Source: Chloroflexota bacterium
GTDB lineage: Bacteria > Chloroflexota > Anaerolineae > JAAEKA01
Direction of reading: 5' to 3'
Length of the DNA stretch: 64,000 nucleotides
Assembly (NCBI GenBank): GCA_029558955.1
Contig: JAKQCW010000021.1
Location: 895 to 64,894 of the forward strand
Shown: one piece after another, positions 20,321 to 43,043 of the stretch
Layout of the letters: every line of letters starts with the position of its first letter
Numbering within the stretch: position 1 is the stretch's first letter
Notes under the pieces: generated by a model
Databases searched by the model: none
The model's input: the letters and a program-made list of their open reading frames with translations, nothing else
What the model was told of the DNA's origin: nothing
Position numbers and translations under genes: made by a program

Positions 20321-20398
20321 TCTAGCACGCCCCTCGTTTTCTCACAAGTCACCCCCGCCCGTTACCCCCTCTGGTCGTGCCGTGGTATAATCCCGGCC

Positions 20399-21088: not shown

Positions 21089-21159
21089 TGCGTAATGCGT
21101 AATGCGTAACCGGATGGAGATGTGCAATGGGTGTGAGCATGAGAAGAACGCCCTGTCCG

Positions 21160-21375
21160 TCACAGCCACCGTCCGCGCTTCCGGTTACGGTTACGCATTA
21201 CGCACCGCTGAGTTCCAGCACGAACGACGCGCCGCATGCACCGCAGCCGCCGTCCGCGCTTCCGGTTACGCATTACGCATTACGCACCGCTGCGTTCCAG
21301 CACGAACGACGCGTCACACGCACCGCAGCCGCCGTCCGCGCTTCCGGTTACGCATTACGCATTACTTTTTCTTGG
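21160..21375. repeat. About 84-bp tandem unit (x~2.7) containing ccggttacgcattacgcattac heptamer runs, upstream of pepA; preceded at 21084-21112 by an inverted (gtaatgc)3 array
   Basis: Read directly. cgtccgcgcttccggttacgcattacgc...cgctg.gttccagcacgaacgacgcg repeats three times. Confidence 0.8.
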
Positions 21376-21439
21376 CGAATGATCCGAGTCATCCGCCACT
21401 CGCAATACAAATCTCCAGCCCACAACGAAAGGTAAAACC

Positions 21440-22954
21440 ATGCAATTTCACGTCAAACAAGGCTCCGTGCAGGACGAGGCGGCCGATCTGTTGGTTGTCA
21501 ATCTGTTCGAGGGCGTCGCTGAGCCGGGCGGCGCGCTGAAGGCGGTGGATCAGGCGCTCCACGGCCTGGTCACGCAGGTCATCGCCGCCGGCGATGTCAA
21601 GGGCAAGCTGGGCGAGACCCAGGTGCTCTACAGCAACGGCGCGCTGCCCGCGCCGCGGGTGCTGATCGCCGGCCTGGGCAAACAGGCTGATTTCGGCGTG
21701 GCTCAGGCGCGCAAGGCCGCGGCCGCGGCCGCCAAGAAGGCGCGTGAGCTGGGTGTAACCCGCCTGGCCACCGTCGTCCACGGCGCGGGCGCGGGCGGTC
21801 TGGACCCCGCGGCCGCGGCCGCGGCTCTGGTCGAGGGCACGCTACTGGGCAACTACCGCTACCGCGGCTACAAGCGCGCAGAGGGGGACAACGGCAAGCC
21901 GGAGCTGGCTGAGGTGGTGGTGCTGGAGGCCGACGCCGGCAAGCTGGCCGCGGTGCAGCAGGGGGTGGCCGCCGGCCAGGTGGTGGGCGAGGCCGCCAAC
22001 TGGGCGCGCGATCTGATCAATGAGCCGCCCAACTACCTGACCCCCAGCGAGATGGCGCGGCGCGTGGTGCAGCGGGCCGAGGCCGTCGGGCTGAAAGCGC
22101 AGGTGCTGGGCGAGGGCGAAATGGCCGAGCTGGGCATGGGCTCCCTGCTGGGCATTTCCCGCGGCAGCGACGAAGAGGCGCAGTTCATCATCCTGGAGCA
22201 CATTCCCCAGGGCGTGGATCCCGCCAGCCTGTCCACCGTGGCGCTGGTGGGCAAGGCCATCACCTTCGACACCGGCGGCATCAGCATCAAGCCGGCTGAG
22301 AACATGTGGAAGATGAAGGGCGACATGGGCGGCGGCGCGGCCACCGCGGCCGCCCTGGTGGCGGCCGCCAGCCTCAACCTGCCGGTGCATGCCGTGGGGC
22401 TGATCGCGGCCAGCGAGAACATGCCGGGCGGCGACGCGATCAAGCCCAGCGACGTGGTGACGGCCATGAACGGCAAGACGGTGGAGATCATCAGCACCGA
22501 CGCCGAGGGCCGCCAGGTGTTGGCCGACGCCATGTGCTATGCGGCGCGCTACCAGCCCGATGCCATGGTGGACATCGCCACCCTGACCGGCGCGATCGGC
22601 ATCGCGCTGGGGTCGGATCTGGCTGGGCTGTTCTGCGACGACGAGACCCTGCGCGGCCGGCTGACCGCGGCCAGTGAGCTGACCGGCGAGTCGGTCTGGC
22701 CCATGCCGCTCTGGAAGCCCTACCGCAAGCTGTTGGACACCGACGCGGCCGACATGAAGCACACGGGCGGCCGGCTGGGCGGATCGATCACCGCAGCGCT
22801 TTTCCTGAAAGAGTTCGCCGGCGAGCAGCCATGGGCGCACCTGGACATCGCCAGCGTCTCGTGGCAGGAAGAGAACAGCGCCTTCGCAGTGCGCGGGGCC
22901 AGCGGCTTCGGCGCACGGCTGCTGCTGGAGCTGCTGCGCGCGTATGGGCAGTGA
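21440..22954 (+). CDS. pepA: Leucyl aminopeptidase (M17)
   Basis: VGKAITFDTGGISIKP, NTDAEGR-like STDAEGRQVLADAMCYA, and other M17 motifs. Confidence 0.9.
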   Translation: MQFHVKQGSVQDEAADLLVVNLFEGVAEPGGALKAVDQALHGLVTQVIAAGDVKGKLGETQVLYSNGALPAPRVLIAGLGKQADFGVAQARKAAAAAAKKARELGVTRLATVVHGAGAGGLDPAAAAAALVEGTLLGNYRYRGYKRAEGDNGKPELAEVVVLEADAGKLAAVQQGVAAGQVVGEAANWARDLINEPPNYLTPSEMARRVVQRAEAVGLKAQVLGEGEMAELGMGSLLGISRGSDEEAQFIILEHIPQGVDPASLSTVALVGKAITFDTGGISIKPAENMWKMKGDMGGGAATAAALVAAASLNLPVHAVGLIAASENMPGGDAIKPSDVVTAMNGKTVEIISTDAEGRQVLADAMCYAARYQPDAMVDIATLTGAIGIALGSDLAGLFCDDETLRGRLTAASELTGESVWPMPLWKPYRKLLDTDAADMKHTGGRLGGSITAALFLKEFAGEQPWAHLDIASVSWQEENSAFAVRGASGFGARLLLELLRAYGQ

Positions 22955-23191
22955 TCGGTGATCGGTGATCGGTAAGCGGTAAACGGTATCCCGGCGTGGG
23001 GGCAGTTGTCGCCCCACGCCGGGGCCATCGATACGCTGGTCAGCGCCGAAGAACGGCGAGGCCTATCGACGTTGAGAAGCTGTTTGAAGGGCCTCGGATT
23101 CCGGTGGCTGGAAAGCACCGGCTGACAATACAAAGGCCCCTCAGGGCCTGGGATTCCTCAATCCATCAACCCGCCCATTCCCCACCAACCG

Positions 23192-23280
23192 TTCACCGTT
23201 TACCGTTTACCGTTTACCGTTTACCGTTCACCGTTCACCGTTCACCGTTCACCGTTCACCATTCACCATTCACCATCCCC
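23192..23280. repeat. Heptamer tandem array (ccgttta/ccgttca/ccattca x~13) immediately upstream of the MFS gene ATG; an inverted partner (cggtgatcggtgatcggtaagcggtaaacgg) lies at 22955-22990
   Basis: Read directly. Confidence 0.85.
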
Positions 23281-23281
23281 C

Positions 23282-24502
23282 ATGTCCCCCACCCCCATCC
23301 GCTCCTACTCCTACCGCTGGGTCGTGCTCCTGGCCTTCATGGCTGTGATCTTCGTCAACCAGATCCTCTGGATCACCTTTGCCTCGGTCACGGGGCCGGC
23401 CGCGGCCTTTTATGGCGTGTCCGACCTGGCCATCGCCGCGCTGGCGCTGAGCTTCATGGTGGTCTACATCTTCGTCTCGATTCCCGCCTCGTGGGTCATC
23501 GACACCTATGGTCTGCGGGTGGGGATCGGGATCGGCGCTGTGCTGACCGGCGTCTTTGGCCTGCTGCGCGGCCTGGGCGGCGACAGCTACACCACCGTGT
23601 TGATCGCCCAGATCGGCATCGCCGCGGCGCAGCCCTTCCTGCTCAACGCCATCACCGCGGTGGCGGCCCGTTGGTTCCCGCTGGGCGAACGGGCCACCGC
23701 GTCCGGCCTGGCCACGCTCTCCATGTACGCCGGCCAGGTCACCGCCCTGGCGCTGACCCCCTTCCTGATGCTGGCGACCAGCATTCCGGCGGTGCTCCTG
23801 ATCTACGGCGTCGCCGCGGTGATCGGTGCGCTGATCTTCCTGATCTTCGCCAGGGAGCGGCCGCCGACGCCAGCCTCAGCCGCCGGCGCCGACGAGCGGG
23901 CGCTGGTCTTCGATGGCATCAAGCTGGCCCTGCGCCAGCGCGACTTCCTGCTGACCCTGCTGATCTTCTTCATCGGCCTGGGGGTGTTCAACGGCGTGGT
24001 GACCTGGATCGAGGACATCGTGCGGCCGAGGGGCTTCACGCCGATCCAGGCGGGGCTGGTGGGTGCGCTGCTGGTGGGCGGCGGGGTGCTGGGTGCGCTG
24101 ATTCTGCCGGCGCTCTCCGATCGCTACCGGCGACGCGTGCCCTTCATCGTGCTGGCCCTGGCCGCGTCCACCGTGGGACTGGCGGGCATCACCTTTGCCG
24201 GCCAGTACGGCTGGCTGCTGGCCGGGGCGGCGGTGATGGGCTTCTTCCTGCTGGCGGCCGGCCCCATCGGTTTTCAATACGGCGCTGAGGTGGCCTATCC
24301 CGCGCCCGAAGGGACCACCAACGGCCTGCTGCTGATGATCGGCCAGGTGTCGGGCATCCTCTTCATCCTGGCCATGGACCTCTTCAAAGACCCCGCCACC
24401 GGCTCCATGACCCCGGCGCTGCTGGCGTTGATCGGGCTGATGGTCGTGGGCGTGCTGCTCTCCACCCGGCTGCGCGAGTCGAAGATGATCACCGGGGCAT
24501 AG
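23282..24502 (+). CDS. MFS transporter
   Basis: 12 predicted TM segments. The conserved R/K-rich loop after TM6 (SDRYRRRVPFIV) follows the MFS pattern. Confidence 0.85.
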   Translation: MSPTPIRSYSYRWVVLLAFMAVIFVNQILWITFASVTGPAAAFYGVSDLAIAALALSFMVVYIFVSIPASWVIDTYGLRVGIGIGAVLTGVFGLLRGLGGDSYTTVLIAQIGIAAAQPFLLNAITAVAARWFPLGERATASGLATLSMYAGQVTALALTPFLMLATSIPAVLLIYGVAAVIGALIFLIFARERPPTPASAAGADERALVFDGIKLALRQRDFLLTLLIFFIGLGVFNGVVTWIEDIVRPRGFTPIQAGLVGALLVGGGVLGALILPALSDRYRRRVPFIVLALAASTVGLAGITFAGQYGWLLAGAAVMGFFLLAAGPIGFQYGAEVAYPAPEGTTNGLLLMIGQVSGILFILAMDLFKDPATGSMTPALLALIGLMVVGVLLSTRLRESKMITGA

Positions 24503-24503: not shown

Positions 24504-27353
24504 TCATAGGATGAGTTTCATGACGGCGTCGACGGCCTCGTCCAAGGTCATGCGGCTTCCGTCCGATTTCAGCTCTGCAAAGTGGGTAGCGTCAAGCAGT
24601 TCACGAGCTGCAGATTCGCAAGAGTCGTAGCCCACGCGTTCAACAGGGGGGAGCGGAGTGCCGAGGCGCTGGCGCAGGCTTTCGGAGCAGCCTAACAGTC
24701 GGGCGGCATGGGCCGGCTGGCCTTGCGCGGCCAAGACGCGGGCCAGACCCTCAAGACAGACTGGGGTGTTGATTGCTCTTTCTGCCTGGCGCAGCTTGAT
24801 CAAACCATAGCGAAAACACGCGGCTGCTTTGGACCATTCGCCATGCTGGCAAGCCAGCTCTCCCAGTCCGATGGCTGTCAGGCTAAGGTCGATTGTTTCC
24901 TGCCTGCCGCTGAGCAGCAGCCAGCTTTGATCCAGGTCCTTGGCAGCTTCTGACAGATTCCCCTCGCACAGGGTCAGGCGTCCGCGATGGGCCAGCACGA
25001 AGCCCTCCAGCCACCGGTAGGCGTCGTGATCGTGCAAGCGGGAAGCATCCAGACATTCGCCGAACCGTTGACGGGCCCGCGTCAGGTCTCCTGATCGAAA
25101 TGCGATGATCCCGAGGCAGTAGAGGGTCCACGAGCTTTCCCAATCATCATGCCATACGCGCATGATGTCCAGCGCTTCAGAGCACGAGGCCTGCGCCAGG
25201 GCATAGTCTCCCTGGTCGTTGGCCACCTCTCCCAGCTTGTTGAGCAGGGCGGCCACCATCACCTGGTTCCCGATGTCGCGGAATGCGGCCAGACTCTGCT
25301 CGATGATGGGGCGGCCAGCCGTTGCCCCCTCGCATTGCCATACGTCCAGGCCAAGATACTGCAAGGAGGGGCCGAGCAGCCAGCGGTCGCCAGCAATGCG
25401 CGCGCCGGCTGCGGCCTCGCGAAGATGCCTGTGCCACGCGGTCCAATCCGCTTGTTGATAGGCGACCAAGGCTAGTGTGCGGTGACAGACGCTCACGCCC
25501 CACGAGTCAGACATCATCTGCCAGATCTCCAGGCCTTGGTTGCCCAGAGAACGCGCCTGGTCGTAGTCTCCTTGCTCGATCGCAAGCCGCGCCAGGTTCT
25601 GTAACGCATAGGCTTTGCCCCAGGCGTCGCTCAGTTGATCGAATCTGCTCAGGGTTTCCTGAAGAATCGCATGTCGCTGCACACTGTCGACATCCCAGAT
25701 CAACAATGTGGCGTAGCCAAGCAGCGCCCGAGCATACCAACCGGAATGAAGCAAGGCCGGTTCTGCTTCCGCTGCGGCCAGCGCCTGACGAACCCACTGC
25801 CGACCCTCGATCTCGAAGCCGCGAATGTGCCAGTAATAGAACATTGCGCCGGTCAGCCGCAGGGCTTTGTCAACCCAGCCATTCTCCAGCGCTGCACTGA
25901 TGGCTGCCCGCACGTTGTCCCGTTCCAAATTGAGCCGGTCGATCCAGACCAGCTGCTCCTGCGTGCGCAAGTGCAAAGCACACTCTTCGGCGAGCTCCAT
26001 CAGATGCGTCGCGTGGAGCGCGCGGGCCTTCGTTTTCTCCCCGCTCTGATCCAAGCGTTCCAGCCCGTATTCCCGCACTGTCTCCAGCATGATGTAGCGT
26101 GACAGCCCGCGCTGATCAGCTTCCCGCAACAGCAGGCTCTTGCCCAGCAAAGAGGCTATGCTGCCGAAGACCTGGGCCGGCGACAGCACATCCTCACACA
26201 TCATCTCCGCTGCCTGCAATGTACAGCCGCCGACGAACACCGCCAGGCGCATGAACAAGGTTTGTTCATTGGGCGTCAGCAGGTCATAGCTCCAGCCGAT
26301 CGCCCCGCGCAGCGTCCGCTGGCGTTCTGATACATCGCGCAGGCCGTCGCTGGAAAGCAGCCACGGCCCGTGCAAGCGCTTGAGCAGCTCGGTCGGAGCG
26401 AACAGCTTGACCCGCGCCGCCACCAGTTCGATGGCCAGCGGCAGCCCGTCCAGCCGGCGACACATCTCGACCACGGCCGCGGCGTTGTCGTCGGTGATGG
26501 CGAAGTCGGGCAACACGGCCTCGGCGCGCTCGGCAAACAGGGCTACGGCCGCATAGCGCAGTGCGTCGGCGCCTGTCAGCGCGCTGGCGTCTGGCTGTAC
26601 GGCCGGCAGAGCCAGGGGATGCACGGTCATCTGCCGTTCTCCGCGGATCCCCAGCGGTTGGCGGCTGGTGACCATGATGTGCAGCCAGGGAGAGCGCCGC
26701 AGCAGATCCTCCACCAGCGGCGCGGCGGCGACGATCTGCTCGAAGTTGTCCAGCACCAGCAGCAAATGCTTCTCCTCCAGCCAAGCCCGCAGTTGGTGTT
26801 CGGGCGGGTTGGCCCCGCTCATCTCCAGCCCCAGAGCCTGGATGATGGCCGACGGGACCAGGGCCGGGTCGCTGACCGGTCCCAGACGCACGAAGAAGAC
26901 ACCCTGTTCGAAGTGTTCCAGCGCCTCCTCGGCCACGGCCAGCGCCAGCCGGGTCTTGCCGACGCCGGGCGGACCGATCAGGGTGATCAGGCGTGCGTCA
27001 TCAGAGAGCAGCCGTTTGCGCAGCGCGGCGATATCGCGGCTGCGTCCCAGCAAGGGCGTCAGTTGGGCGGGCAGGTTGTGGGGGCGCTGTGGCCGCAGCA
27101 GGCGCGCGCGCGCAGAAAAGTCGCCCTTTGCGCCGCGTGCCAGGGCGACCATGCCGGGCAGATCAGCCTCGGCGACGGCCAGCGCCCTGGCCAGGGACGC
27201 GGCCAGCGCGGCCGAGGGGTGCAGGTCGCCGCCCTCGATCTTGCGCAGCGACACCTCCGCGCAACCGACCTGCTGGGCCAGTTCCTTTTGTGTCAGATGG
27301 AGCGCCCTGCGGCGCTGCTTGAGCCAGTGGCCAAAATTGCCCTTGTCAGCCAT
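24504..27353 (-). CDS. STAND NTPase-type regulator: XRE-family HTH + NB-ARC/AAA ATPase + TPR repeats
   Basis: N-terminus FGHWLKQRRRALHLTQKELAQQVGCAEVSLRKIEGG (HTH). Walker A LIGPPGVGKTRLALAVAE, Walker B LLLVLDNFEQ. The C-terminal ~500 aa are TPR-like. Start taken at MADKGNF. Confidence 0.8.
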   Translation of the reverse strand: MADKGNFGHWLKQRRRALHLTQKELAQQVGCAEVSLRKIEGGDLHPSAALAASLARALAVAEADLPGMVALARGAKGDFSARARLLRPQRPHNLPAQLTPLLGRSRDIAALRKRLLSDDARLITLIGPPGVGKTRLALAVAEEALEHFEQGVFFVRLGPVSDPALVPSAIIQALGLEMSGANPPEHQLRAWLEEKHLLLVLDNFEQIVAAAPLVEDLLRRSPWLHIMVTSRQPLGIRGERQMTVHPLALPAVQPDASALTGADALRYAAVALFAERAEAVLPDFAITDDNAAAVVEMCRRLDGLPLAIELVAARVKLFAPTELLKRLHGPWLLSSDGLRDVSERQRTLRGAIGWSYDLLTPNEQTLFMRLAVFVGGCTLQAAEMMCEDVLSPAQVFGSIASLLGKSLLLREADQRGLSRYIMLETVREYGLERLDQSGEKTKARALHATHLMELAEECALHLRTQEQLVWIDRLNLERDNVRAAISAALENGWVDKALRLTGAMFYYWHIRGFEIEGRQWVRQALAAAEAEPALLHSGWYARALLGYATLLIWDVDSVQRHAILQETLSRFDQLSDAWGKAYALQNLARLAIEQGDYDQARSLGNQGLEIWQMMSDSWGVSVCHRTLALVAYQQADWTAWHRHLREAAAGARIAGDRWLLGPSLQYLGLDVWQCEGATAGRPIIEQSLAAFRDIGNQVMVAALLNKLGEVANDQGDYALAQASCSEALDIMRVWHDDWESSWTLYCLGIIAFRSGDLTRARQRFGECLDASRLHDHDAYRWLEGFVLAHRGRLTLCEGNLSEAAKDLDQSWLLLSGRQETIDLSLTAIGLGELACQHGEWSKAAACFRYGLIKLRQAERAINTPVCLEGLARVLAAQGQPAHAARLLGCSESLRQRLGTPLPPVERVGYDSCESAARELLDATHFAELKSDGSRMTLDEAVDAVMKLIL

Positions 27354-27614
27354 ACACACGTCTCCCACAGGGGTCGCAGACCGCGACGTTCAACGCTGTT
27401 CAACTGCCATGCCCTGACGGCTCTTTGGGGCCGCCGCGCCAGAATTATATCACAAAACTATCGGTTTTGATATCGCAAATAGCTGTCAATAGTTGTACAA
27501 ACCAGGTATCATGAGCAGCAACGAATGGTGCAAAGTTGGCAGCCGGAACCGTGATTCTGGAAAGAGGATTTGCGCCGAAACAGATTGGGAGCTTGCCCCG
27601 TTGGGAGATACGCC

Positions 27615-28004
27615 ATGAACATCCTGGCAGCGGTTATAATCATGCTGGTTAGCGTCGTTCCATTGATAACGAGAAACCCTCACCATCTTCCCATCGCCTA
27701 CGATGATCAGTATCACCTTGCCCATCAGGCGCGCTTTGTCGATATCCCCGTGCTTGGCAACGATATCGACGCGGGGGCGGGGACCTTGCGGGTGGTAGCG
27801 GTGGGCGGAGTGAACGGGGGCAGGGCGGAGATCATCGAGGGCAGAACAGTGCGGGTTACTGTTGATTGGGCCAGCTATGCCGTCTGGTCCGGCGCTGGCG
27901 GCCCCCCTGGCAGAGTGGCCTACGGGTACTACATCATCAGCAACGGCTATGCCCGATCGCAGGGCATGTGGGCGGTCTGGTACCTGCCAGACATGATAGT
28001 TTGA
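27615..28004 (+). CDS. Small secreted cadherin-like/Ig-like single-domain protein (paralog 1)
   Basis: Signal-peptide-like MNILAAVIIMLVSVVPL. Motif VDIPVLGNDIDAGAGTLRVVAV...TVRVTVDW (VLxNDxD cadherin-like signature). Confidence 0.6.
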   Translation: MNILAAVIIMLVSVVPLITRNPHHLPIAYDDQYHLAHQARFVDIPVLGNDIDAGAGTLRVVAVGGVNGGRAEIIEGRTVRVTVDWASYAVWSGAGGPPGRVAYGYYIISNGYARSQGMWAVWYLPDMIV

Positions 28005-28129
28005 ACCAGCCGCTGCAAGCGCCTGGCAGCAACGGGGGCGTCCCTGCCGCGCAAGAACCCGTTCCCCGGGGCGCCTGCTGGCCACCGATAGTTTTGCGTC
28101 TTCGCGTTCGTGCAGCAAGGAGGTATACC

Positions 28130-28564
28130 ATGAAGCATGCAGCCATTCTCGTGCTCCTGATCATCGCGCTCAGTCTGACGGCTGTTGCAGCCCACGCGGG
28201 CGACCCGCGCAACGAGCCGCCCATCGCCAACAATGACGAAATCGTCCTCGGTTCCTGCCCGATGGCCATCGTCGACATCCCTGTGCTGGACAATGACTTC
28301 GACCCTGAGGGGCGGAATCTTAGAGTCACCCGTGTGTCGCTGATCAAGGGTGGCCAGGCCGTGATCAGCGACGGCAAGATCGTGCGGGTCATCATCGACT
28401 GGTCGTCGGACAACGGCGACGCGTTTGGCCTGGTCGCCCACGGCGCCTATTTCGTCAGTGATGGCTTGGCCGAGAGCAAGGCCGAGTGGTTTGTGTGTTA
28501 CTGGCCCGAGAGCCATGCCTTAGCTCTGGCTGCGCAGCCCTTTGGCTGCGATCCCGCCCAATAA
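28130..28564 (+). CDS. Small secreted cadherin-like/Ig-like single-domain protein (paralog 2)
   Basis: Strong RBS AAGGAGG. Signal peptide MKHAAILVLLIIALSLTAVAAHA. VDIPVLDNDFDPEGRNLRVTRV...IVRVIIDW. Confidence 0.65.
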   Translation: MKHAAILVLLIIALSLTAVAAHAGDPRNEPPIANNDEIVLGSCPMAIVDIPVLDNDFDPEGRNLRVTRVSLIKGGQAVISDGKIVRVIIDWSSDNGDAFGLVAHGAYFVSDGLAESKAEWFVCYWPESHALALAAQPFGCDPAQ

Positions 28565-28789
28565 GGCCGTGCGGGCTTTGACTGAGGCACCCACAGGACA
28601 TCCACGCCCAGTTGGGCGTGGATGTCCACCTCGAATCTGGCCCAGGCGACCGGATTGGGTTACAGCGTCTGCTACCCGCGGTGAGCAACATCTCCGCTGA
28701 ACCCAGCGGCTGCGTCAACCCCCAATAGCTCAGGCCAGGTGAACGAACTCCGTCCAGTTGGGCGTCATCATAAAATGTGAGGGACTGGC

Positions 28790-37182: not shown

Positions 37183-37452
37183 ATGAGCATCAGCCAGACA
37201 CATCTGGACCGGGCGATAACACTGGCGAAGGCTTATGGCGCTACACGCCTGATCCTCTTCGGGAGCGCCCTCGTGCAACCGCAACAAGCGCGGGATCTGG
37301 ACCTGGCCTGCGACGGTGTCGCCGGCTGGAAGCTCTATGAGTTGGGAGCGCGATTGGAAGAGGAGCTTGGCATTCCGCTTGACTTGGTCCCATTAACCCC
37401 TCCAACTCCGTTTACCCGTCTTATTGAGCGCAGAGGCAAGATCCTGCTATGA
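37183..37452 (+). CDS. Minimal nucleotidyltransferase (MntA-like antitoxin)
   Basis: LILFGSALVQP...DLDLA is the GS...DxD nucleotidyltransferase signature. 89 aa. 4-bp overlap with the downstream HEPN gene. Confidence 0.7.
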   Translation: MSISQTHLDRAITLAKAYGATRLILFGSALVQPQQARDLDLACDGVAGWKLYELGARLEEELGIPLDLVPLTPPTPFTRLIERRGKILL

Positions 37453-37919
37453 CGTTGGACGCATTGCGCGAGGAAATTGCCATCGAAATACAAGCCATCG
37501 AGATGACTCTCGCCGAACTGATGGCGTTGGGTCGCGATGTAGCCGATCGATTACCGACTGTCCGGGAAAAAACAGCCGCCGCAGCCTTTCTGGCGCAGTT
37601 CTACAACGGTGTCGAGAACATCCTCAAGCGCATCTGCAACTACCACTCTTTGTCGCTTCCAACAGGTGACACCTGGCACGTCGAGCTGTTTCGACGCTTC
37701 ACTTCGCCTGGCTATCCTCCTCTGCCCATGCTGTTCGACGGCCCATTGGCCGCCGACCTGGCCCCCTATCGCCGTTTTCGGCATGTCGTCTTTCACAGCT
37801 ACGGTTTTCAGTTGGATTGGTCCCGGATGACAGAAGGCGCGTCGAATGTCGAGGGGGTCTTCTTGCGACTCAAGATCCGCCTCGACGACTACCTTCGGTC
37901 TTTGCCCACGGATACCTGA
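37449..37919 (+). CDS. HEPN-domain (HepT/DUF86-like) toxin
   Basis: 156 aa, helical. YRRFRHVVFHSYG fits the HEPN Rx4-6H(xY) motif. Confidence 0.6.
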   Translation: MTLDALREEIAIEIQAIEMTLAELMALGRDVADRLPTVREKTAAAAFLAQFYNGVENILKRICNYHSLSLPTGDTWHVELFRRFTSPGYPPLPMLFDGPLAADLAPYRRFRHVVFHSYGFQLDWSRMTEGASNVEGVFLRLKIRLDDYLRSLPTDT

Positions 37920-40561
37920 TTCCCTCCGACCAGCCCGGCATTCCGCGAGTCTACAACACGAATTACCTGCAACCCCCACGTCACCGCCGCCTGGGGGCTG
38001 AGCTCCCACCCGGCCGTCCAGGCGGCGGCGAAGGCGTCGGCGCTCAGGGCGGACTGGGCAGAGGCCTGGACGCGGTCGAAGTCGGCCTGGGTGATGGGGA
38101 GCAGCACTTCGAGGCCGCTGGCGACGGCGGCGGCGCAGGCGCCCAGCAGCGTCGCGGCGATCTCGTGCTGCCCGACCGCGCCGGCCAGGCCGGCCAGGCG
38201 CAGCGAGCCGGGCGGATGCGTCAAAATGCCGCGTTGCAACAGGATCGGCAAGGTCTCCCGGTAGAGTTGCAGCGCCTCGCCCGGCTTGCCCTCGGCCACG
38301 GCCAGGTCCCCCTGGTCGGCGCGCACCATCGACACGCGCCAGTGGGCGTCCATGTGGCGGCCCAGCGCCAACGCCTCGTCCAGATGGCCATGCGCCGCGG
38401 AGAAGTCCTGTCGCCAGATCGCAATCTCGCCCAGGCAGGTCAGCAGCCAGGCCGTCTCGGAGGGGCTGTTCCTCTGACGGCACAGCGCCAGGCACTCTTG
38501 GGCCAGATCGTGCGCCGTGGCCAGGTCCCCCTCCACCAGCGCCAGTTCTGCCAGACCGCCAATCGACCGTACCTGCTGAGCGCGCTGTTCGGGCGGCAGC
38601 GCCCGGGCCATCGCCTGCGTGTGCAGGGCGCGGCTGCGCGCCAGATCGCCGCGCAGCATGACGATCTCGGCCAGCACCGCCAGCACGTGGCCCCAATCGG
38701 CCAGCTCGCCGGCGTACAACAGGGCGCCGGCCGCGCATTCCAGGGTGCTCTCGGCCCGCGCCGCGTTGCCGGCCATGGCTGCCAGCCGCCCTTGAAAGTA
38801 GAGCGCCCCAGCCTGCCCCAGAGCGAGCTCCAGCTCGGTGCATAGCCTGAGCGACTTCGAGAAGGCCCGTTCGGCCGCGGCGCCCTGGTCGGCCAGGAAT
38901 TCGACGATCCCCTGGCAGTAGAACAGAGCCGCGGCCTCGGTCGTGGTCGCGCCGGCTTCCGGCAGCGCCAAGGTTCGCTCGATCCAGGCGCGCGCCTCAC
39001 GCACGAAACCGTGGCCGGCCAGCGTCCGGCTGGTCGGCAGCGCCAGACGGAGGGCGGCCGCGCCGTCATGCCCCAGCGCCCACTCCAACGCCGCGCTCAG
39101 GTTATGGATTTCGCCGTCGATCTCCTTCCAACTGGCTTGCTCCAGAATGCAGAAGGGCGCGGCCAGCGCTGGCTCTGCCACGGCGAGGCACCAGGCCAGA
39201 TGCCGCTGACGCACCAGCGCGGCCTCCTCGCTGGCCGCCAGCCGTTCCAAAGCATACTTGTGGATCGTCTCCAGCATGGCGTAGCGCGCCTCGCCGTGCG
39301 GCCCTGGCTCGCGGCGCAGCAGGCTCTTGTCCAACAGAAAGGCCAGGCCGTCCAGCACCCGCGCCGGCGAGAGGATCAGCGGGAGCGGGGGGGGAAGCGT
39401 GTCGCCGCAGAGCAGTTCTGCCGCCTCCAGCGTGAAGCTGCCGACGAAAACGGCCAGGTAGCGAAACAGGGTTTGCTCGGCCGGGCTGAGCAATTCGTAG
39501 CTCCAGCCGATGGCGTCGCGCAACGTCTTGTGCCGGATCGGCCCATCGCGCAGACCGTCCAGCGAGAGCATCCACGGCCCGCTCTGGCGCAGGAACAATT
39601 CGTCGGGCGACAGCAGCTTGACGCGGGCCGCCGCCAGTTCGATGGCCAGGGGCAGCCCGTCCAACTGACGGCAGATCCCGGCCACGGCGGCCGCGTTGGC
39701 GTCGCTGACGGTGAAATCGGGCTGGACGGCCTGGGCGCGGTCGGCAAAGAGCGCGACGGCGGGATAGCGCAAGGCATCGACGGCGGTGAGCGCTTCGGCT
39801 CTGCCTTCGCCGGCGGGCAGCTCCAGGGGCAATACCGGCATCTGGCGCTCGCCGCGCAGCCGCAGCGGCTGGCGGCTGGTGGCCAGCACATGCAGCCAGG
39901 GACAGCGCCGCAGCAGATCATCCACCAGCGGCGCCGCCTCGATGACGTGCTCGAAGTTGTCCAGCACCAACAGGAGGTGCTTCTCCTCCAGGCAGACGTG
40001 CATCTGCACGACGGGGGGATGGGCGCCGCTGATGGGGAAGCCCATGGCCTGGACGATGGTCGACGCCACCAGCTCAGGATCGGCGATCGGCCCCAGGCGC
40101 ACGAAGCAGGCGCCGTGTTCGAAATCATCGAGCGCCTTTTCTGCCACCGCCAGCGCCAGCCGCGTCTTGCCGACGCCGGGCGGACCGATCAGGGTGATCA
40201 GGCGTGCGCCGTCGCGCAGACGACGGTGGACCGCCGTCACGTCATGGTCGCGTCCGAACAAAGGGGTGAGGGACGCCGGCAGGCTGGGGGCGCGGCGCAG
40301 CCTGGTCTGGGGAGGCTGTCCCCTGGCCCGGCCCTGACGGCTCAGCGCCGTTTCCAGCAGCGCCGGCAGGTCGGCGTTGGCAGTCCCCAGGGCCTTGATC
40401 AGAGCAGCAGCCAGTTGCGCCGAGGGGCGCAGGTCGCCGGCCTCGATCTTGCGCAGCGTCACCTCGGCGCAACCGACCTGGCGAGCCAACTCGCGCTGCG
40501 TCAGATCGAGGCCGGCGCGCCGCTGTCTGAGCCACTGGCCGAAATTGTCGGTATTGCCCAT
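37889..40561 (-). CDS. STAND NTPase-type regulator paralog: XRE HTH + NB-ARC/AAA + TPR
   Basis: MGNTDNFGQWLRQRRAGLDLTQRELARQVGCAEVTLRKIEAGD. LIGPPGVGKTRLALAVAE. A 60-bp stretch (40150-40210) is nearly identical to 26940-27000 of the first paralog. Confidence 0.8.
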   Translation of the reverse strand: MGNTDNFGQWLRQRRAGLDLTQRELARQVGCAEVTLRKIEAGDLRPSAQLAAALIKALGTANADLPALLETALSRQGRARGQPPQTRLRRAPSLPASLTPLFGRDHDVTAVHRRLRDGARLITLIGPPGVGKTRLALAVAEKALDDFEHGACFVRLGPIADPELVASTIVQAMGFPISGAHPPVVQMHVCLEEKHLLLVLDNFEHVIEAAPLVDDLLRRCPWLHVLATSRQPLRLRGERQMPVLPLELPAGEGRAEALTAVDALRYPAVALFADRAQAVQPDFTVSDANAAAVAGICRQLDGLPLAIELAAARVKLLSPDELFLRQSGPWMLSLDGLRDGPIRHKTLRDAIGWSYELLSPAEQTLFRYLAVFVGSFTLEAAELLCGDTLPPPLPLILSPARVLDGLAFLLDKSLLRREPGPHGEARYAMLETIHKYALERLAASEEAALVRQRHLAWCLAVAEPALAAPFCILEQASWKEIDGEIHNLSAALEWALGHDGAAALRLALPTSRTLAGHGFVREARAWIERTLALPEAGATTTEAAALFYCQGIVEFLADQGAAAERAFSKSLRLCTELELALGQAGALYFQGRLAAMAGNAARAESTLECAAGALLYAGELADWGHVLAVLAEIVMLRGDLARSRALHTQAMARALPPEQRAQQVRSIGGLAELALVEGDLATAHDLAQECLALCRQRNSPSETAWLLTCLGEIAIWRQDFSAAHGHLDEALALGRHMDAHWRVSMVRADQGDLAVAEGKPGEALQLYRETLPILLQRGILTHPPGSLRLAGLAGAVGQHEIAATLLGACAAAVASGLEVLLPITQADFDRVQASAQSALSADAFAAAWTAGWELSPQAAVTWGLQVIRVVDSRNAGLVGGNQVSVGKDRR

Positions 40562-40848
40562 CGCATATCAATCCACCTTGTTGCTCGCCCAAAAAAGCTG
40601 TTCGCCCTGATACAGTTGTTCGTCTAAAAAAGTTGCTCGCCCAACAACACAGCCGTCATGGGTCGTTGCGATTCCCCGTAATTATAGCATATTCTCCGCC
40701 CTCTGTGCACATGAATTTTGGCCGACAAGCAATTTCAAACGTGGCGCGGAGTCGAGGCCTTAACCGGGTCTGATCTTCGGCGCCGGGCACTTGAACGAGT
40801 GAAAGTGCCCGGCGCCTGAGTGGTGACGAGTTGGCAACCTTGTCTTCG

Positions 40849-41832
40849 TCACCGATCGCGCAGCCGCGGGTCCAACGCGTCGCGCAGGCCGTCGCCGACG
40901 AAGTTGAAGGCCAGCACCACAACGGCCACGGCGATGGCGGGGGCCATCAGCAGCCACGGCTGGGCGTTGATGGCCGACTGGCCGTCCAGCATCAGCGCCC
41001 CCCAGCTGGTGATGAAGATATCCTTGGAGTTGGTCGAGGGGCGCAGGCCCAAGCCCAGATAGCCCAGAACGGCCTCGGCGATGATCAGGGCAGGGATGCG
41101 GATGGCGGTGTAGACGATGATGGGACCCAGGCAGTTGGGCAGGATGTGCTTGAACATGATGCGGCCATGCTTGGCGCCCACCATGCGGCTGGCTTCGACG
41201 AATTCCTTCTCTTTGAGCGACAATACCTGGCCGCGCACCAGGCGGGCCAGGCCGATCCAACTGGTGATCGCCAGCGCGATGAAGAGCAGCACCAGGCCAT
41301 TCATCAGCTTGCCCACCGGCGTATCGCGCAGCGCGGTCATCACGATGATGAAGAAGAGCAGGTCGGGGAAGGCGTAGAGAATGTCGCCAAAGCGCATGGT
41401 GAAATTGTCGACCCGGCCGCCCATGTAGCCGGCAACCATGCCCACGGCCACGCCCACCAGCAGGATGATGATGACCGGGATGATGCCCACCACCAGCGAC
41501 ACGCGCGAGCCGTAGATCACGCGGCTGAGCACGTCACGTCCCAGGCTGTCGGTGCCGAAAATGAACTGCGAATCGCCGGCCTGGCCTGTGGGGCCCTTCG
41601 CCACCCAGGAGGGGGGCAGATAGCCCTTGCCGTCATAGATCTTCAGCGGGTCGTGGGGGGCCAGCAGCGGCGCAAAAATGGCGACCAGGGTGAAGAGAAA
41701 GAGCACCACGGCCGCGATGATGGCCAGCTTGTTCTTGGTGAAACGCACCCAGGCATCGCGCCAAAGCGAGCGGGGCGGCCGGGAGAGCACCATCGTCGAT
41801 GTGGGATCGAGAGTCGGGGTTTGGACGGTCAT
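40849..41832 (-). CDS. ABC peptide transporter permease (OppC/DppC-type)
   Basis: Multi-TM protein with the EAA-like loop ASRMVGAKHGRIMFKHILPN. Start at MTVQTP (ATG at complement 41830-41832). Confidence 0.85.
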   Translation of the reverse strand: MTVQTPTLDPTSTMVLSRPPRSLWRDAWVRFTKNKLAIIAAVVLFLFTLVAIFAPLLAPHDPLKIYDGKGYLPPSWVAKGPTGQAGDSQFIFGTDSLGRDVLSRVIYGSRVSLVVGIIPVIIILLVGVAVGMVAGYMGGRVDNFTMRFGDILYAFPDLLFFIIVMTALRDTPVGKLMNGLVLLFIALAITSWIGLARLVRGQVLSLKEKEFVEASRMVGAKHGRIMFKHILPNCLGPIIVYTAIRIPALIIAEAVLGYLGLGLRPSTNSKDIFITSWGALMLDGQSAINAQPWLLMAPAIAVAVVVLAFNFVGDGLRDALDPRLRDR

Positions 41833-41839
41833 GGCAGCC

Positions 41840-42835
41840 TCACTTTCCCACCTTGATGCGCGGGTCCAGGAACCCATAGGTGATGTCCACGGTCAGGTTG
41901 GCAAGCGCCACCAGCACGGCGTAGAGCAGGGTGGTGCCCATGATCATCGAATAGTCGCGGCGGGAGATGGACTGGACGAACTCGCGGCCGCTGCCGGGGA
42001 AGCTGAACATCTGCTCGATAATAAAGGAGCCGGTCACCAGGCCTGCCAGCGCCGGGCCGATGATCGTCACCACCGGGATCAGGGCGTTGCGCAGCATGTG
42101 CCGCGCCACCACGACCTTTTCAGAGAGACCCTTGGCGCGGGCTGTGCGCACATAGTCCTGCTGCATGACCTCCAGCATCTGCGAACGCGTCAGCCGGGTG
42201 ATGAAGGCAAAGGTGCCGAAGCCGAGAATCACTCCGGGGACAATCCAGGCGCCGGGGCTGCTCCAATCCTGTTGCACGATTTTGATCAGCTTGAGCCGGC
42301 CAGCCAGCAGCACGATCAAAAAGATGGCCAGGACAAAACTGGGCACCGAGATGCCAATGGTGGAGATCAGCAAGGAGAAGTAGTCGATCACCGTGTTGCG
42401 CCGCAGGGCGCCGATGGTGCCCAGAGGAATGCCAAAAAGGACTGCCAGGCCCAACGCTAACAGTCCCAGGCGCAGCGAATAGCCGAACTTGCTGTTCCAG
42501 ATGGGCTTCCCCTCCGGCGGCTTGAACAGAATATCCTCGACATTCATGCCGCGTTGGCGATAGGAAGGACCCAGATTGCCCCGCAGCGCGCCGCCGATAT
42601 AGTTGAAGAACTGGCTGTCCAGTGGGTTACCCCCCTCGGTGTTGATGAACAGCGGCTTGTCCAGGCCAAATTCCTTGTTGAGCAGTTCCTGCGTGCGCGG
42701 GTCCACCTGGCGGGCGCTCAGATCCCGATCCCAGGGACCGCCGGGCGCCGCGTGCATCAGGATGAAGGTGATCAAAGCCACGAAAAAGAGTGTGGGGATC
42801 ATCCACAGGAGCCGTCGCACGATGTAACTTATCAT
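41840..42835 (-). CDS. ABC peptide transporter permease (OppB/DppB-type)
   Basis: MISYIVRRLLWMIPTLFFVALITFILMHAAPGGP N-terminus typical of OppB/DppB. Confidence 0.85.
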   Translation of the reverse strand: MISYIVRRLLWMIPTLFFVALITFILMHAAPGGPWDRDLSARQVDPRTQELLNKEFGLDKPLFINTEGGNPLDSQFFNYIGGALRGNLGPSYRQRGMNVEDILFKPPEGKPIWNSKFGYSLRLGLLALGLAVLFGIPLGTIGALRRNTVIDYFSLLISTIGISVPSFVLAIFLIVLLAGRLKLIKIVQQDWSSPGAWIVPGVILGFGTFAFITRLTRSQMLEVMQQDYVRTARAKGLSEKVVVARHMLRNALIPVVTIIGPALAGLVTGSFIIEQMFSFPGSGREFVQSISRRDYSMIMGTTLLYAVLVALANLTVDITYGFLDPRIKVGK

Positions 42836-43043
42836 CTGCTATCACCTCAATTCCATGCTGCATGCGATCGCAACCGGGCATCTGGTCGATCTGAGGCTTC
42901 GGAAGTCGTCGCCCTGGCGTCTCGCCTGAAAGGGCGACGACTTCCAATGCCTGGCCCACGCTGGCCATCAGAGCGATGGCGTTCGCGAAGCGGGCCGTTG
43001 AACGCAGTAGGGGCGGGGGCAACCCGCCCCTACTGATCGTCCG

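Follow-up and report, generated by a model that had tools for sequence, protein, structure and literature searches.

A pair of predicted STAND regulator genes frames an array with variable cargo in an uncultured Anaerolineae lineage

Two genes for STAND-type proteins lie in direct orientation, 10.5 kb apart, in the window analysed here (the whole stretch of Chloroflexota DNA, 64 kb in length), and the DNA that they bracket looks foreign. This arrangement raises the question of whether the pair arose by a duplication in this genome, controls the genes enclosed by it, or marks a site at which cargo is inserted, possibilities that an earlier note on this DNA had set side by side. The two genes and their principal parts are as follows.

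STAND1, 24504..27353, minus strand: XRE-HTH, NB-ARC and TPR regulator of 949 aa; 'slot B', between the cadherin-like genes and the MFS gene
HTH domain of STAND1, 27162..27335, minus strand: aa 7-64, Pfam HTH_31
Walker A stretch of STAND1 (RLITLIGPPGVGKTRLALAV), 26934..26993, minus strand: 58/60 nt identical to its STAND2 counterpart
STAND2, 37889..40561, minus strand: XRE-HTH, P-loop NOD and TPR regulator of 890 aa; 'slot A', directly downstream of OppC on the same strand
Walker A stretch of STAND2, 40145..40204, minus strand: counterpart of STAND1 26934..26993

Relationship of the two STAND genes

Both reading frames on the minus strand are intact, and the N-termini quoted in the earlier note are exact; the 949 aa of STAND1 are counted from the ATG chosen there, with a further open GTG at 27368, five codons upstream. 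In Pfam searches, an N-terminal HTH was matched in STAND1 and STAND2 (HTH_31 with 37.7 and 42.6 bits, cut-off 27; HTH_3 with 32.4 and 35.9 bits, cut-off 23), as were P-loop NTPase models (AAA_22, AAA_16 and NACHT). NB-ARC scored 35.6 bits in STAND1 (cut-off 23.5) and is not listed for STAND2 at E<=0.01, so that the NB-ARC assignment of STAND2 is made via its 56% identity to STAND1 and the motifs common to both. The NOD of about 330 aa separates the HTH from the TPR part, in which TPR_12 scored 65.5 and 34.5 bits in the two proteins (cut-off 30.1) and for which the family profile has strong PDB matches; no effector domain was found by Pfam in either protein. Both carry the Walker A motif GPPGVGKT, LLLVLDNFE (Walker B), (V/A)TSRQPL (sensor-1) and DGLPLAIEL (GLPLA motif). 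In an alignment of 30 family members, Walker A and the residues D202, N203, T229, R231, G303, P305, L306 and A307 are invariant, and the recognition-helix segment (GCAEVSLRKIE in STAND1, GCAEVTLRKIE in STAND2) is near-invariant across the close clade.

Alignment of the two genes bears out the common architecture and homology proposed for them. The proteins are 56% identical over the N-terminal 535 aa (BLASTP, E 5e-177), while their C-terminal TPR halves are only weakly alike (about 25-30%), giving 42% over the full length; at the DNA level, identity amounts to 72.6% over the first 1145 nt. A third STAND copy is not present in the 64-kb window. STAND2 ranks only about 58th among the matches of STAND1, and each gene has closer full-length orthologues in other genomes (P0002, P0003 and P0004 with 68-70% identity for STAND1; P0054 and P0050 with 79-80% for STAND2). 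For this reason the pair does not represent a recent duplication, and the proposal that it arose by duplication in this genome finds no support: STAND1 and STAND2 are old, long-diverged lineages that are neither recent duplicates nor each other's closest relatives.

The near-identical 60-bp segment to which the earlier note had drawn attention is real, and even 18 of its 20 third codon positions are alike in the two genes. However, it is not special to this pair, as the same stretch (RLITLxGPPGVGKTRLALAV) is identical to either gene in 50-57 of 60 nt in nine family members from other genomes. Gene conversion at the Walker A stretch was rejected on these grounds; the near-identity reflects family-wide conservation combined with GC-rich codon use.

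The family to which the two proteins belong is large, with at least 7969 matches at E<1e-20, mostly from Chloroflexota; the named hosts are Anaerolineae, Caldilineales or Ca. Amarolinea. BTAD-, LuxR- and adenylate-cyclase-headed relatives are present in the match lists, among them the BTAD-headed P0112 in that of STAND1. Both proteins are uncharacterised members of an AfsR-like STAND family expanded in Chloroflexota and hence of a known class (AfsR/MalT type), with the predicted order HTH, NB-ARC ATP switch and variable TPR sensor and with an XRE-type HTH in place of the SARP output domain.

AfsR of Streptomyces coelicolor (SARP, NB-ARC and TPR) shares with them the central NB-ARC, an LLVLDN-type Walker B, the GLPLA motif and the C-terminal TPR sensor, and it provides the best full-architecture PDB match of the family profile (8k60/8jke, E 6e-23). 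In contrast to the N-terminal XRE-type HTH of STAND1 and STAND2, its output part consists of an OmpR-type wHTH and BTAD. Neither Trans_reg_C nor BTAD was matched by Pfam in the two proteins, and the AfsR equivalog of NCBIfam scored weakly (67.7 and 30.7 bits, cut-off 1430). The SARP module that is fused in AfsR is found here as a separate gene of 315 aa within the array that the pair brackets. The logic predicted for the two proteins is that of the STAND transcription activators MalT of E. coli and GutR of B. subtilis, in which ligand-sensing repeats are combined with a switch that oligomerises in an NTP-dependent manner and with an HTH as the output (Danot 2009/2015, cited in PMC7159879). MalT differs in its C-terminal LuxR HTH and in its NOD clade: Pfam finds no GerE/LuxR match in either protein, the MalT equivalog scored 19.1 bits (cut-off 537) and TPR_MalT 32.1 (cut-off 45), the latter in STAND2 only. 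No sugar-utilisation context exists at this locus. The RNPP regulators (PlcR, NprR, Rap, PrgX) resemble STAND1 and STAND2 in the succession of an XRE HTH and a TPR sensor; the family profile matches the TPR domains of NprR and RapJ at ~1e-11, and a peptide importer (Opp) adjoins the STAND2 locus. However, RNPP proteins have no NTPase module, no pro-peptide gene was identified, and the adjacency to Opp is not kept in the related loci L102 and L105.

The gene array and its flanks

The genes between STAND1 and STAND2 all lie on the plus strand and form one array that diverges from STAND1 and converges on STAND2. From left to right, flanking genes included, the following features were recognised.

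MFS transporter, 23282..24502, plus strand: conserved left-hand frame (Pfam)
cad1, 27570..28004, plus strand: small protein with one cadherin/Big_9-like domain, divergent from STAND1, 37% identical to cad2
cad2, 28130..28564, plus strand: paralogue of cad1 with a signal-peptide-like N-terminus (Pfam Big_9/Cadherin_4; gene call in L007)
SARP-type regulator, 28790..29737, plus strand: OmpR-like wHTH and BTAD (Pfam BTAD 7e-23), co-directional with the cargo
p85, 29928..30185, plus strand: 85-aa protein travelling with SARP (59% aa identity in L015, beside SARP)
Low-GC replaceable cargo, 30157..37955, plus strand: 7.8 kb, GC ~0.53
DUF2589 gene, 30674-31498, plus strand: cargo
DUF2589-like gene, 31630-32394, plus strand: cargo
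Two cargo genes, 32412-32978 and 33027-34349, plus strand
Matrixin with PG_binding_1 and DUF346 propeller, 34491-36359, plus strand: cargo
Cargo gene, 36399-36854, plus strand
MNT, 37183-37452, plus strand: cargo, toxin-antitoxin pair with HepT
HepT, 37449-37919, plus strand: cargo, toxin-antitoxin pair with MNT
OppC permease, 40849..41877, minus strand: conserved right-hand frame (Pfam); the Opp operon runs on to ~47.1 kb

A lower GC content had been noted earlier for the entire interval. This is clearly true of 30.2-37.95 kb, but the proximal part (27.35-30.19 kb) is conserved in the sister species and has an intermediate composition: the values are 0.612 for 27354-30185 and 0.533 for 30186-37888, as compared with 0.66-0.67 in the flanks, with sharp drops at ~30.1-30.2 kb and ~37.95 kb. 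No integrase or transposase domain was detected in any ORF of 27.3-37.9 kb, no tRNA gene in the 64-kb window, and no border repeat of the cargo longer than 9 nt; among PHROG models, only weak endolysin-like matches were obtained, to a part of the matrixin protein (aa 82-185) within which its PG-binding domain lies. A phage or integrative-element origin of the island was rejected on these grounds. The SARP protein is 80% identical to its L015 copy, and a scan of metagenomes with it returned a single distant match; the exact products of the SARP and p85 genes gave no database record on look-up. Among the flanking genes, Pfam recognises peptidases (M17/M19/M20) and a peptide transporter.

The locus in relatives and in the source population

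In relatives, the anchors of the locus are well conserved (OppC with 89-91% nt identity in L012, L015 and L101; the MFS 3' end with 89-90% in L014 and L095), and the type of STAND gene beside them varies. On the Opp side, the order is OppC/STAND2-type/99aa/patatin in L101, in which the STAND2-type gene, from another species, shares 84.5% of its nucleotides with STAND2, and OppC/STAND1-type/232aa in L012 and L015. On the MFS side, L014 has the order cad/STAND1-type/232aa/MFS and L095 the order cad/third STAND type/247aa/MFS, with homologues of cad1 upstream of the slot-B STAND gene in both. Each visible slot thus holds a STAND gene, in a two-slot picture of the sister species that is assembled from separate short contigs, possibly of different strains, the contigs or flanks of L012 and L015 ending before the second slot. 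A relative with a single STAND gene and no cargo was not found among them. In the Opp loci of 80 Chloroflexota genomes (~1.3 Mb in total), a family member is present in only one, the orthologous locus; a STAND gene follows OppC in the sister species only, synteny past the Opp operon is not kept in other genera, and no ancestral 'empty site' could be reconstructed from these loci.

In several comparisons, the cargo varies independently of the STAND type. L012 and L015 are 98% identical up to a break, beyond which L015 carries patatin, a 140aa protein, an I42-like protein and a papain C1 protease, and L012 carries DUF6519 and other genes; SARP and p85 are conserved in L015. A STAND1-type gene is thus accompanied by patatin cargo in L015 and by DUF6519 cargo in L012, and a STAND2-type gene occurs with matrixin here and with patatin in L101/L102. 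The cargo of the window has no homology to that of L012, L015, L101 or L102. A deletion between paralogues, as an origin of the single-looking STAND gene of L012, was rejected, as on the far side of its cargo L015 still has p85, SARP and the cad-like end.

The regulator genes themselves are mosaic. The slot-A gene of L015 and L012 is STAND2-like at -60..+30 and STAND1-like from ~+120, and its switch region contains a stretch that is 93-100% identical in all members. L015 and L101 share 97.7% of the OppC tail, and their high identity ends just past the OppC terminator. A swap of the whole gene as a cassette, with breakpoints outside the gene, is partly ruled out: the L015 gene starts with a promoter and first codons of the slot-A kind, and therefore the junction lies inside the HTH-coding part. 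Another family member, P0005, is 83% identical to STAND1 for 1282 nt and unrelated beyond. In the window, the 3' end of STAND1 is clipped (homology with L012/L014 stops at ~24519, with a 1-nt gap to the MFS gene), and the final ~22 codons of STAND2 are without counterpart in its orthologues, homology with L101 stopping at ~37955-37961.

Variation of the same kind segregates within the source population, in which a second haplotype (H2) lacks two segments.

Block absent from H2, 30154..36455: the genes from DUF2589 to matrixin, with the beginning of p151
Second segment absent from H2, 29102..30032: C-terminal two thirds of SARP and N-terminus of p85

Contigs L002 and L006 join 36456 straight to 30153, and L003 and L005 end exactly at 36456. 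As a consequence of the second absence, H2 encodes an in-frame SARP(1-104)::p85(36-76) fusion; every short-read contig breaks at 28975-29101 because H2 lacks 29102..30032, and the H2 analysis accounts for the constant assembly breaks at this position and at 36456. H2 retains STAND2, HepT, MNT and p151 and reads into the unitig bearing STAND1. The earlier note had regarded the occurrence of both STAND genes without an intervening island as evidence against its proposal; H2 comes near to this state, lacking the DUF2589-to-matrixin block, but keeps HepT, MNT and p151. Its alternative of an insertion hot-spot gains support from the close relatives with entirely different cargo and from the polymorphism of the source population for the 6.3-kb block.

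Integrase-less genomic islets ('regions of genomic plasticity'), whose exchange proceeds through flanking homology, are alike in their anchors (here Opp and MFS), alternative cargo, compositional jump and presence/absence polymorphism in the population. Unlike in ordinary islets, the internal frame genes here are paralogous regulators whose sensor halves are among the exchanged parts, and the framed arrangement recurs at unrelated chromosomal sites. Direct STAND pairs bracket opposite-strand hydrolase or toxin cargo at three other loci (L102/L103, L105 and L097). The pair of L102 consists of the same two STAND types as the slots of L101 and L095 (66% and 78% identity), and in L105 the downstream partner is a second copy, now degraded, of the same STAND2 type. 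Across the five loci, the cargo is mostly hydrolases and toxin modules (patatin, papain/CHAT/C25/matrixin proteases, HepT, AbiEii).

A probable framed hot-spot and its possible control

The reading that we favour, with a probability of roughly 0.6 for the explanation as a whole, is that STAND1 and STAND2 are resident frame genes of a recombination hot-spot with replaceable cargo and, by analogy, regulators. The two genes, which do not belong to the imported island, fill two fixed slots between the Opp operon and MFS anchors and frame a co-directional array with a conserved proximal part (cad1, cad2, SARP, p85) and a replaceable distal cargo. Between close relatives, and also inside the source population, the cargo, the STAND type of a slot and the STAND sensor halves are exchanged or deleted. 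Recombination may use the conserved 5' halves (HTH and NOD, with near-identical stretches of 40-60 nt) as homology, and this would account for the chimeric genes and for the clipped 3' ends beside every junction. Overall, the family of regulators is ordinary; what is unusual is the plasticity of the locus, whose architecture recurs.

An origin of the pair within this genome, by tandem duplication or by a Campbell-type event in which a single crossover within a STAND gene integrated the island, with Walker A as the crossover or conversion tract, would agree with the direct orientation and the foreign-looking DNA in between, and the degraded L105 copy shows that such a process exists in the family. 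It is largely refuted, and we give it hardly any credence, in view of the divergence of even the best-conserved half and the unrelated sensor halves, the closer orthologues elsewhere, the STAND2-type gene already beside OppC in another species, the STAND1-type gene already beside cad and MFS in L014, and a Walker A stretch equally conserved between unrelated genomes. Chance proximity of two members of a multi-copy family to an unrelated island, with SARP as the island's own regulator, is improbable but deserves some weight: the family is very large, SARP and p85 directly precede the cargo, in the same orientation, at this locus as well as in L015, and the truncation of SARP in H2 coincides with the loss of the DUF2589-to-matrixin block. 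Some of the pairing could indeed be chance. Against it, the same bracket of upstream STAND gene, opposite-strand cargo and downstream direct STAND gene is found at the three additional loci in other neighbourhoods, the L102 pair repeats the two slot types, and the one family member among the 80 Opp loci is the orthologous one.

We consider it distinctly unlikely that the locus is an NLR-like conflict system, in which the TPR halves would be fast-swapping sensors of phage or non-self and the activated HTH output would turn on adjacent effector-like cargo. The hosts are Anaerolineae, a filamentous group. STAND expansions in multicellular bacteria have been linked to conflict systems (PMC7159879). 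The hydrolase and toxin cargo of the five loci is typical of such systems, it turns over between strains and within a population, and swapped sensor halves on a nearly invariant output HTH would amount to many sensors with one output. Avs and NLR-like antiphage STANDs are similar in their STAND NTPase and TPR sensor, strain-variable region and neighbours (HepT/MNT, patatin, CHAT), but carry an enzymatic effector at the N-terminus where STAND1 and STAND2 have a DNA-binding HTH. PADLOC matched only the HTH segment (HTH_VI, capH, RmrA) and, marginally, short TPR and P-loop (TRIP13) stretches of STAND1; no Avs or NLR NTPase model was matched, and among the island proteins only MNT was, so that a known defence system was rejected. 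Moreover, cad2 and the 140-aa and 247-aa proteins look secreted, which fits extracellular proteolysis better than abortive infection, and the flanks carry peptidases and a peptide transporter. To our knowledge, all bacterial HTH-STANDs studied to date are metabolic or developmental regulators (MalT, AfsR, GutR).

Within the favoured reading of resident frame genes, regulation of the island by the STAND pair is suggested by analogy with MalT and AfsR: binding of a ligand to the TPR sensor would release autoinhibition, ATP-bound NB-ARC modules would oligomerise, and the HTH domains would engage promoter DNA. STAND1, which is transcribed divergently from the array, would be the more likely array regulator. 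STAND2, with an almost identical recognition helix and a different sensor, could convey another signal to the same operators. The uncoupling of STAND type and cargo speaks against control of the cargo by the pair. As a candidate regulator of the cargo, the co-directional SARP gene is no weaker than the STAND pair, and it may act as second-tier activator of the cargo. In a bolder version, to which we assign a low probability, direct XRE-STAND pairs would constitute a recurrent 'framed cassette' of Anaerolineae and related Chloroflexota, with HTH/NOD halves as portable homology arms for the swapping of sensors and effector-like cargo (lipases, proteases, toxin modules) between strains. Proteins with many sensors and one DNA-binding specificity would then turn this cargo on when non-self or environmental cues are perceived, so that the loci would correspond, at the level of transcription, to NLR immune loci.

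What makes this system of interest is the locus as a whole: it offers, in a lineage of uncultured Anaerolineae, a clean natural case of a recombination hot-spot that is framed by regulator genes, the evidence for which includes chimeric regulators, exchanged sensor halves and a presence/absence polymorphism that segregates within one population. If the bracket is functional, it would offer a handle on what the thousands of Chloroflexota XRE-STANDs sense and control, and show whether bacterial NLR-like sensors work via transcription instead of fused effectors.

Two sequence elements are candidates for sites of such control.

Conserved non-coding element upstream of STAND1 (TTGACAGCTATTTGCGATATCAAAACCGATAGTTTTGTGATATAAT), 27443..27490, minus strand: candidate promoter or operator
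Second exact copy of the 13-mer ACCGATAGTTTTG, 28084..28096, plus strand: upstream of cad2; the first copy is at 27453-27465 on the minus strand

A scan of 27.3-30.75 kb for consensus promoters and terminators gave nothing helpful above shuffle expectation, and a palindromic operator (CAAAAC-N5-GTTTTG) upstream of STAND1 was set aside, but kept as a lead, as its right arm is not conserved in L014, L095 and L013. The element upstream of STAND1 is 87-90% identical in L014 and L095, as compared with 72-83% for the flanking coding DNA. The 13-mer, by which STAND1 and the cad2 upstream region may be connected, occurs nowhere else in the 64 kb, even if as many as 2 mismatches are tolerated.

The STAND gene pair and the array that it frames

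Two genes on the minus strand, here termed STAND1 and STAND2, are intact reading frames according to the gene listing and to translation, and all genes positioned between them are read from the plus strand. This array is divergent from STAND1 and convergent on STAND2, with the 3′ ends of hepT and STAND2 overlapping by 31 nt.

24504-27353, minus strand: STAND1, 949 amino acids counted from the ATG
27570-28004, plus strand: cad1, small protein with one cadherin/Big_9-like domain
28130-28564, plus strand: cad2, small protein with one cadherin/Big_9-like domain, 37% identical to cad1
28790-29737, plus strand: SARP regulator (BTAD, 7e-23)
29928-30185, plus strand: p85, an 85-aa gene
30674-31498, plus strand: DUF2589 protein
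31630-32394, plus strand: DUF2589-like paralogue
32412-32978 and 33027-34349, plus strand: genes for unknown proteins
34491-36359, plus strand: protein with matrixin, PG_binding_1 and DUF346-propeller domains
36399-36854, plus strand: p151, unknown protein of 151 amino acids
37183-37452, plus strand: MNT
37449-37919, plus strand: HepT
37889-40561, minus strand: STAND2, 890 amino acids

The earlier note had ascribed the same architecture to both STAND genes, and this is borne out by Pfam and BLASTP. Each protein carries an N-terminal XRE-type HTH (HTH_31 and HTH_3, above the cut-off), P-loop NTPase signatures (AAA_22, AAA_16, NACHT) with intact NTPase motifs, and TPR_12 repeats in its C-terminal half; STAND1 additionally matches NB-ARC with 35.6 bits (cut-off 23.5). 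Pairwise alignment shows that the two are homologous, with 56% amino acid identity across the first 535 residues (BLASTP, E 5e-177) and 72.6% DNA identity over the first 1145 nt, while the TPR parts yield only scattered matches of 26-30%. A DNA comparison found no third STAND copy in the 64-kb window. The nearly identical 60-bp segment to which the earlier note had drawn attention is real (58/60 nt; 26934-26993 in STAND1, 40145-40204 in STAND2) and codes for the Walker A segment RLITLIGPPGVGKTRLALAV. It holds no special meaning for this pair, since the corresponding DNA of nine family members from other genomes matches either window gene at 50-57 of the 60 positions; the similarity thus stems from a protein segment conserved throughout the family and from GC-rich codon use, and an exchange between STAND1 and STAND2 at this stretch is unsupported.

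The supposition that everything between the pair is lower in GC holds for 30186-37888 (0.533, against 0.66-0.67 in the flanks) and needs correction in its extent, as 27354-30185 has a GC content of 0.612. Sharp transitions lie at about 30.1-30.2 kb and 37.95 kb; we refer to the block of roughly 30.2-37.95 kb as the cargo. No integrase or transposase gene is present in the interval between the STAND genes, no tRNA gene in the 64-kb window, and repeats at the borders are at most 9 nt long. The left flank encodes an MFS transporter, the peptidases M17, M19 and M20, and UDG; the right flank is the Opp peptide-transport operon. These conserved borders of the hot-spot, peptidases M20, M19 and M17 (16088-22954) to the left and a complete Opp-type peptide ABC transporter (40849-47111) to the right, make up a neighbourhood for peptide utilisation, which accords with the secreted-protease character of much of the variable cargo.

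The products of the first two cargo genes (30674-32394) have a short motif in common, VPxLxxLxxPxIRVxExTxD (BLASTP, E 7e-5), so that the island begins with a DUF2589/DUF2589-like pair; neither finds a match in the PHROGs or PADLOC libraries. The matrixin gene closes with an array (35565-36351) in which a 270-nt unit is repeated 2.9 times with 89% matches and which codes for DUF346/PLL-type propeller blades. In short-read assemblies this array is collapsed, and the protein accordingly has 555 amino acids in contig L001 versus 622 in the window.

Exchange at the two STAND sites

As an alternative to regulators of the island, the earlier note had suggested that the pair could mark a duplication or an insertion hot-spot. 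A search with STAND1 retrieved at least 7969 proteins at E<1e-20, which stem, where their source is named, from Anaerolineae, Caldilineales, Ca. Amarolinea and other Chloroflexota. STAND2 ranks only about 58th among the STAND1 matches listed, and each gene has closer full-length orthologues in other genomes: P0002-P0004 for STAND1 (68-70% identity), and P0054 and P0050 (79-80%) as well as P0036, P0041 and P0052 (65-68%) for STAND2. Judged from these comparisons, STAND1 and STAND2 represent old, separate lineages, and a recent duplication in this genome is rejected.

The insertion hot-spot is supported by the same locus in relatives. The lineage of the window, uncultured Anaerolineae, has been sampled in several metagenomes (JGI, ENA) and is represented by two NCBI MAGs. 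Five loci bear on two sites: slot A directly after OppC, occupied by STAND2 in the window (L012, a Logan contig; L015, from the MAG Anaerolinea sp. CH3; L101), and slot B between the cad genes and the MFS gene, occupied by STAND1 (L014, L095). Identity is 98% between L012 and L015; between either of them and the window it is about 90% over the Opp genes. Both carry a STAND1-type gene (68% amino acid identity) in slot A in place of STAND2, followed by a convergent 232-aa nucleotidyltransferase-like gene, and then diverge completely past L012 position 6117. The cargo beyond this break consists of DUF6519 and other unknowns in L012, and of a patatin, a 140-aa protein, a chagasin-like protein and a papain-family protease in L015. 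Past its cargo L015 shows p85 (59%) and SARP (80%), then the end of a cad-like gene. It follows that SARP, p85 and cad form a conserved module and that the cargo distal to it can be replaced. The OppC tail of L101 is 97.7% identical to that of L015, yet its slot A holds a STAND2-type gene (84.5% nt identity to STAND2), followed by a 99-aa membrane protein and then the same patatin as in L015. The content of slot A hence differs between genomes that are very closely related. Slot B reads cad, STAND1-type gene, 232-aa gene, MFS in L014, and cad, a third STAND type (P0005), 247-aa gene, MFS in L095.

The 232-aa gene (L012 5194-5892; L014 3805-4503; 79% identical between these loci) invariably follows STAND1-type genes in the relatives and is without counterpart in the window. 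Its product contains a minimal nucleotidyltransferase-like motif (GGVATRAY...DxD) with a weak NTP_transf_5 match, and may be a nucleotidyltransferase of the toxin-antitoxin type. In L015 (10497-12796), the papain-family (C1) protease adjoins the protein with a weak chagasin/I42 inhibitor match, a possible protease-inhibitor pair, with the patatin-like lipase alongside.

Polymorphism extends into the source population. Contigs L002 and L006, from two independent samples, are 99.8-99.99% identical to the window on the Opp side up to 36456, which is joined directly to 30153-30033 (95% identical, six mismatches in 121 nt) and then, by a second direct join, to 29101-28975 (100% identical). This second haplotype, H2, lacks 30154-36455 (DUF2589 through matrixin) and 29102-30032 (most of SARP and the start of p85), and the latter deletion creates an in-frame fusion, SARP(1-104)::p85(36-76). 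Short-read contigs coming from the STAND1 side all stop at 29101, and those from the opposite side at 28975 or 36456, because H2 is present. From a common terminal 127-mer we infer that H2 runs on into the STAND1 unitig.

Individual STAND genes bear traces of exchange as well. Compared in sliding windows, the gene that fills slot A in L015/L012 is like STAND2 and L101 at −60 to +30, and like STAND1 and L014 from about +120 on; the switch coincides with the HTH-coding stretch, which is 93-100% identical in all members. P0005 matches STAND1 over 1282 nt at 83% nt identity, after which the two have nothing in common, so the sensor half of P0005 has been replaced at about codon 430. Both window genes have non-native 3′ ends. 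In STAND2, homology with L101 stops at 37955-37961, and the last codons, about 22 in number, are novel and lie antisense to the end of hepT; STAND1 lacks about 20 residues relative to its orthologues and is separated by 1 nt from the MFS gene, where L014 and L095 have an extra gene. Collectively, the chimeras and clipped ends point to exchange and deletion through homologous and illegitimate recombination rather than to site-specific integration.

Recurrence of the bracket and relation to known systems

The same bracket was found at three further loci. In L102/L103, whose neighbourhood differs from that of the window (fumarase, Fer4, Crp, ACT, hydantoinase), the first STAND gene is of the STAND2 type (66%) and precedes opposite-strand genes for a 100-aa protein, a patatin, a 140-aa protein and four more genes, the patatin and the 140-aa protein being 79% and 81% identical to those of L015; beyond this cargo lie an AAA_14 gene and, on the same strand as the first, another STAND gene with 78% full-length identity to P0005. 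L105 shares its left synteny with L102 and combines a STAND2-type gene, opposite-strand CHAT- and C25-like genes, and, downstream of these, a fragmented second STAND2-type copy without the first 27 codons. In L097, opposite-strand genes for AbiEii, a CHAT-pentapeptide protein and a 47-aa product lie between a NOD-less HTH+TPR derivative and the STAND gene P0006. Only one of 80 Opp loci of Chloroflexota (about 1.3 Mb in all) has a STAND family member, and this is the orthologous locus; set against this, the three additional brackets make the arrangement look non-random. In the L097 derivative (2288-3865, 525 amino acids), a TPR half of the STAND2 type (80% identical to STAND2 residues 404-871) follows directly on an XRE HTH, the entire NTPase module being deleted; the result is an RNPP-like HTH+TPR architecture that originated from a STAND gene.

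With a profile of 30 family members, AfsR (8k60, 8jke) is the sole full-architecture relative in the PDB (E 6e-23), the remaining matches being TPR-only. It is also the closest known system, although its defining SARP head is missing from STAND1 and STAND2, as is the LuxR tail of MalT; RNPP proteins, in contrast, are devoid of the NTPase that both possess. The matches listed also include relatives with BTAD, LuxR, adenylate-cyclase or DDE-transposase heads in place of the XRE HTH. STAND1 and STAND2 are best classed among the AP-ATPase/NB-ARC STAND regulators, as uncharacterised members with an XRE head. More unusual is the locus, where paralogous regulators frame a hot-spot, the sensor halves of these regulators and the hydrolase/toxin-rich cargo between them are exchanged, and the arrangement recurs at unrelated sites.

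Proposed regulation and dispersed repeats

In their working mode, STAND1 and STAND2 may be likened to STAND activators of the MalT, AfsR and GutR type. By this analogy, ligand binding to the TPR sensor would relieve autoinhibition, the ATP-bound NB-ARC modules would oligomerise, and the HTH domains would then engage DNA. In the 30-member alignment, HTH and NOD are best conserved (mean pairwise identity 0.59-0.64) and the sensor least (0.30). The recognition-helix segment GCAEVTLRKIE is almost invariant within the close clade and nearly equal in STAND1 and STAND2, whose sensors are unrelated.

STAND1 is the natural candidate for a regulator of the array, in view of its divergent transcription, a conserved upstream element and a 13-mer shared with the cad2 upstream region. 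With 87-90% identity, the 48-nt element (27443-27490) is also present in L014 and L095. The 64 kb contain exactly two copies of the 13-mer ACCGATAGTTTTG, one before STAND1 (27453-27465, minus strand) and one before cad2 (28084-28096, plus strand), in equal orientation relative to the downstream gene. Its STAND1 copy lies within the 48-nt element as part of CAAAAC-CGATA-GTTTTG, a 6-5-6 inverted repeat that the relatives do not conserve. SARP would be a good candidate for a cargo-specific activator, as it is co-directional with and just upstream of the cargo in both species and is truncated in H2, the haplotype without the cargo block. STAND2 could feed a second signal to the putative operators of STAND1; alternatively, it may be tied to conserved downstream partners (the 99-aa protein, the patatin and the 140-aa protein) that were lost in this strain. 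STAND type and cargo are uncoupled in several comparisons. An NLR-like conflict system with a transcriptional output is also conceivable; STAND1 and STAND2 fail every curated defence model, and the PADLOC matches are confined to the HTH segment, apart from marginal short ones to TPR and P-loop in STAND1.

A dispersed repeat with the core GGCTAAAGCCTCGACTCC and a 22-nt unit looks REP-like and is present in 20 copies in the window (0.05 expected). Thirteen copies are arranged head-to-tail at 6794-7085, five alternate in orientation at 47357-47573, and further ones lie at 57270-57287 and at 40748-40765, the copy in the OppC-STAND2 intergenic region falling within the part missing from L101 and L015. 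Intergenic tandem repeats at 15235-15346, 21163-21365, 23188-23274 and 53705-53955 comprise a 44-nt unit (two copies), an 82-nt unit (2.5 copies), the heptamer ACCGTTC (12 copies, immediately before the MFS gene) and arrays based on CGTAATG. The repeat at 15.3 kb has another copy number in L008, a contig from the same metagenome series that is 100% identical to the window on either side of 19652-20306 and 22967-23261 and gives no megablast alignment inside these segments, which are further local strain differences beyond the STAND locus.
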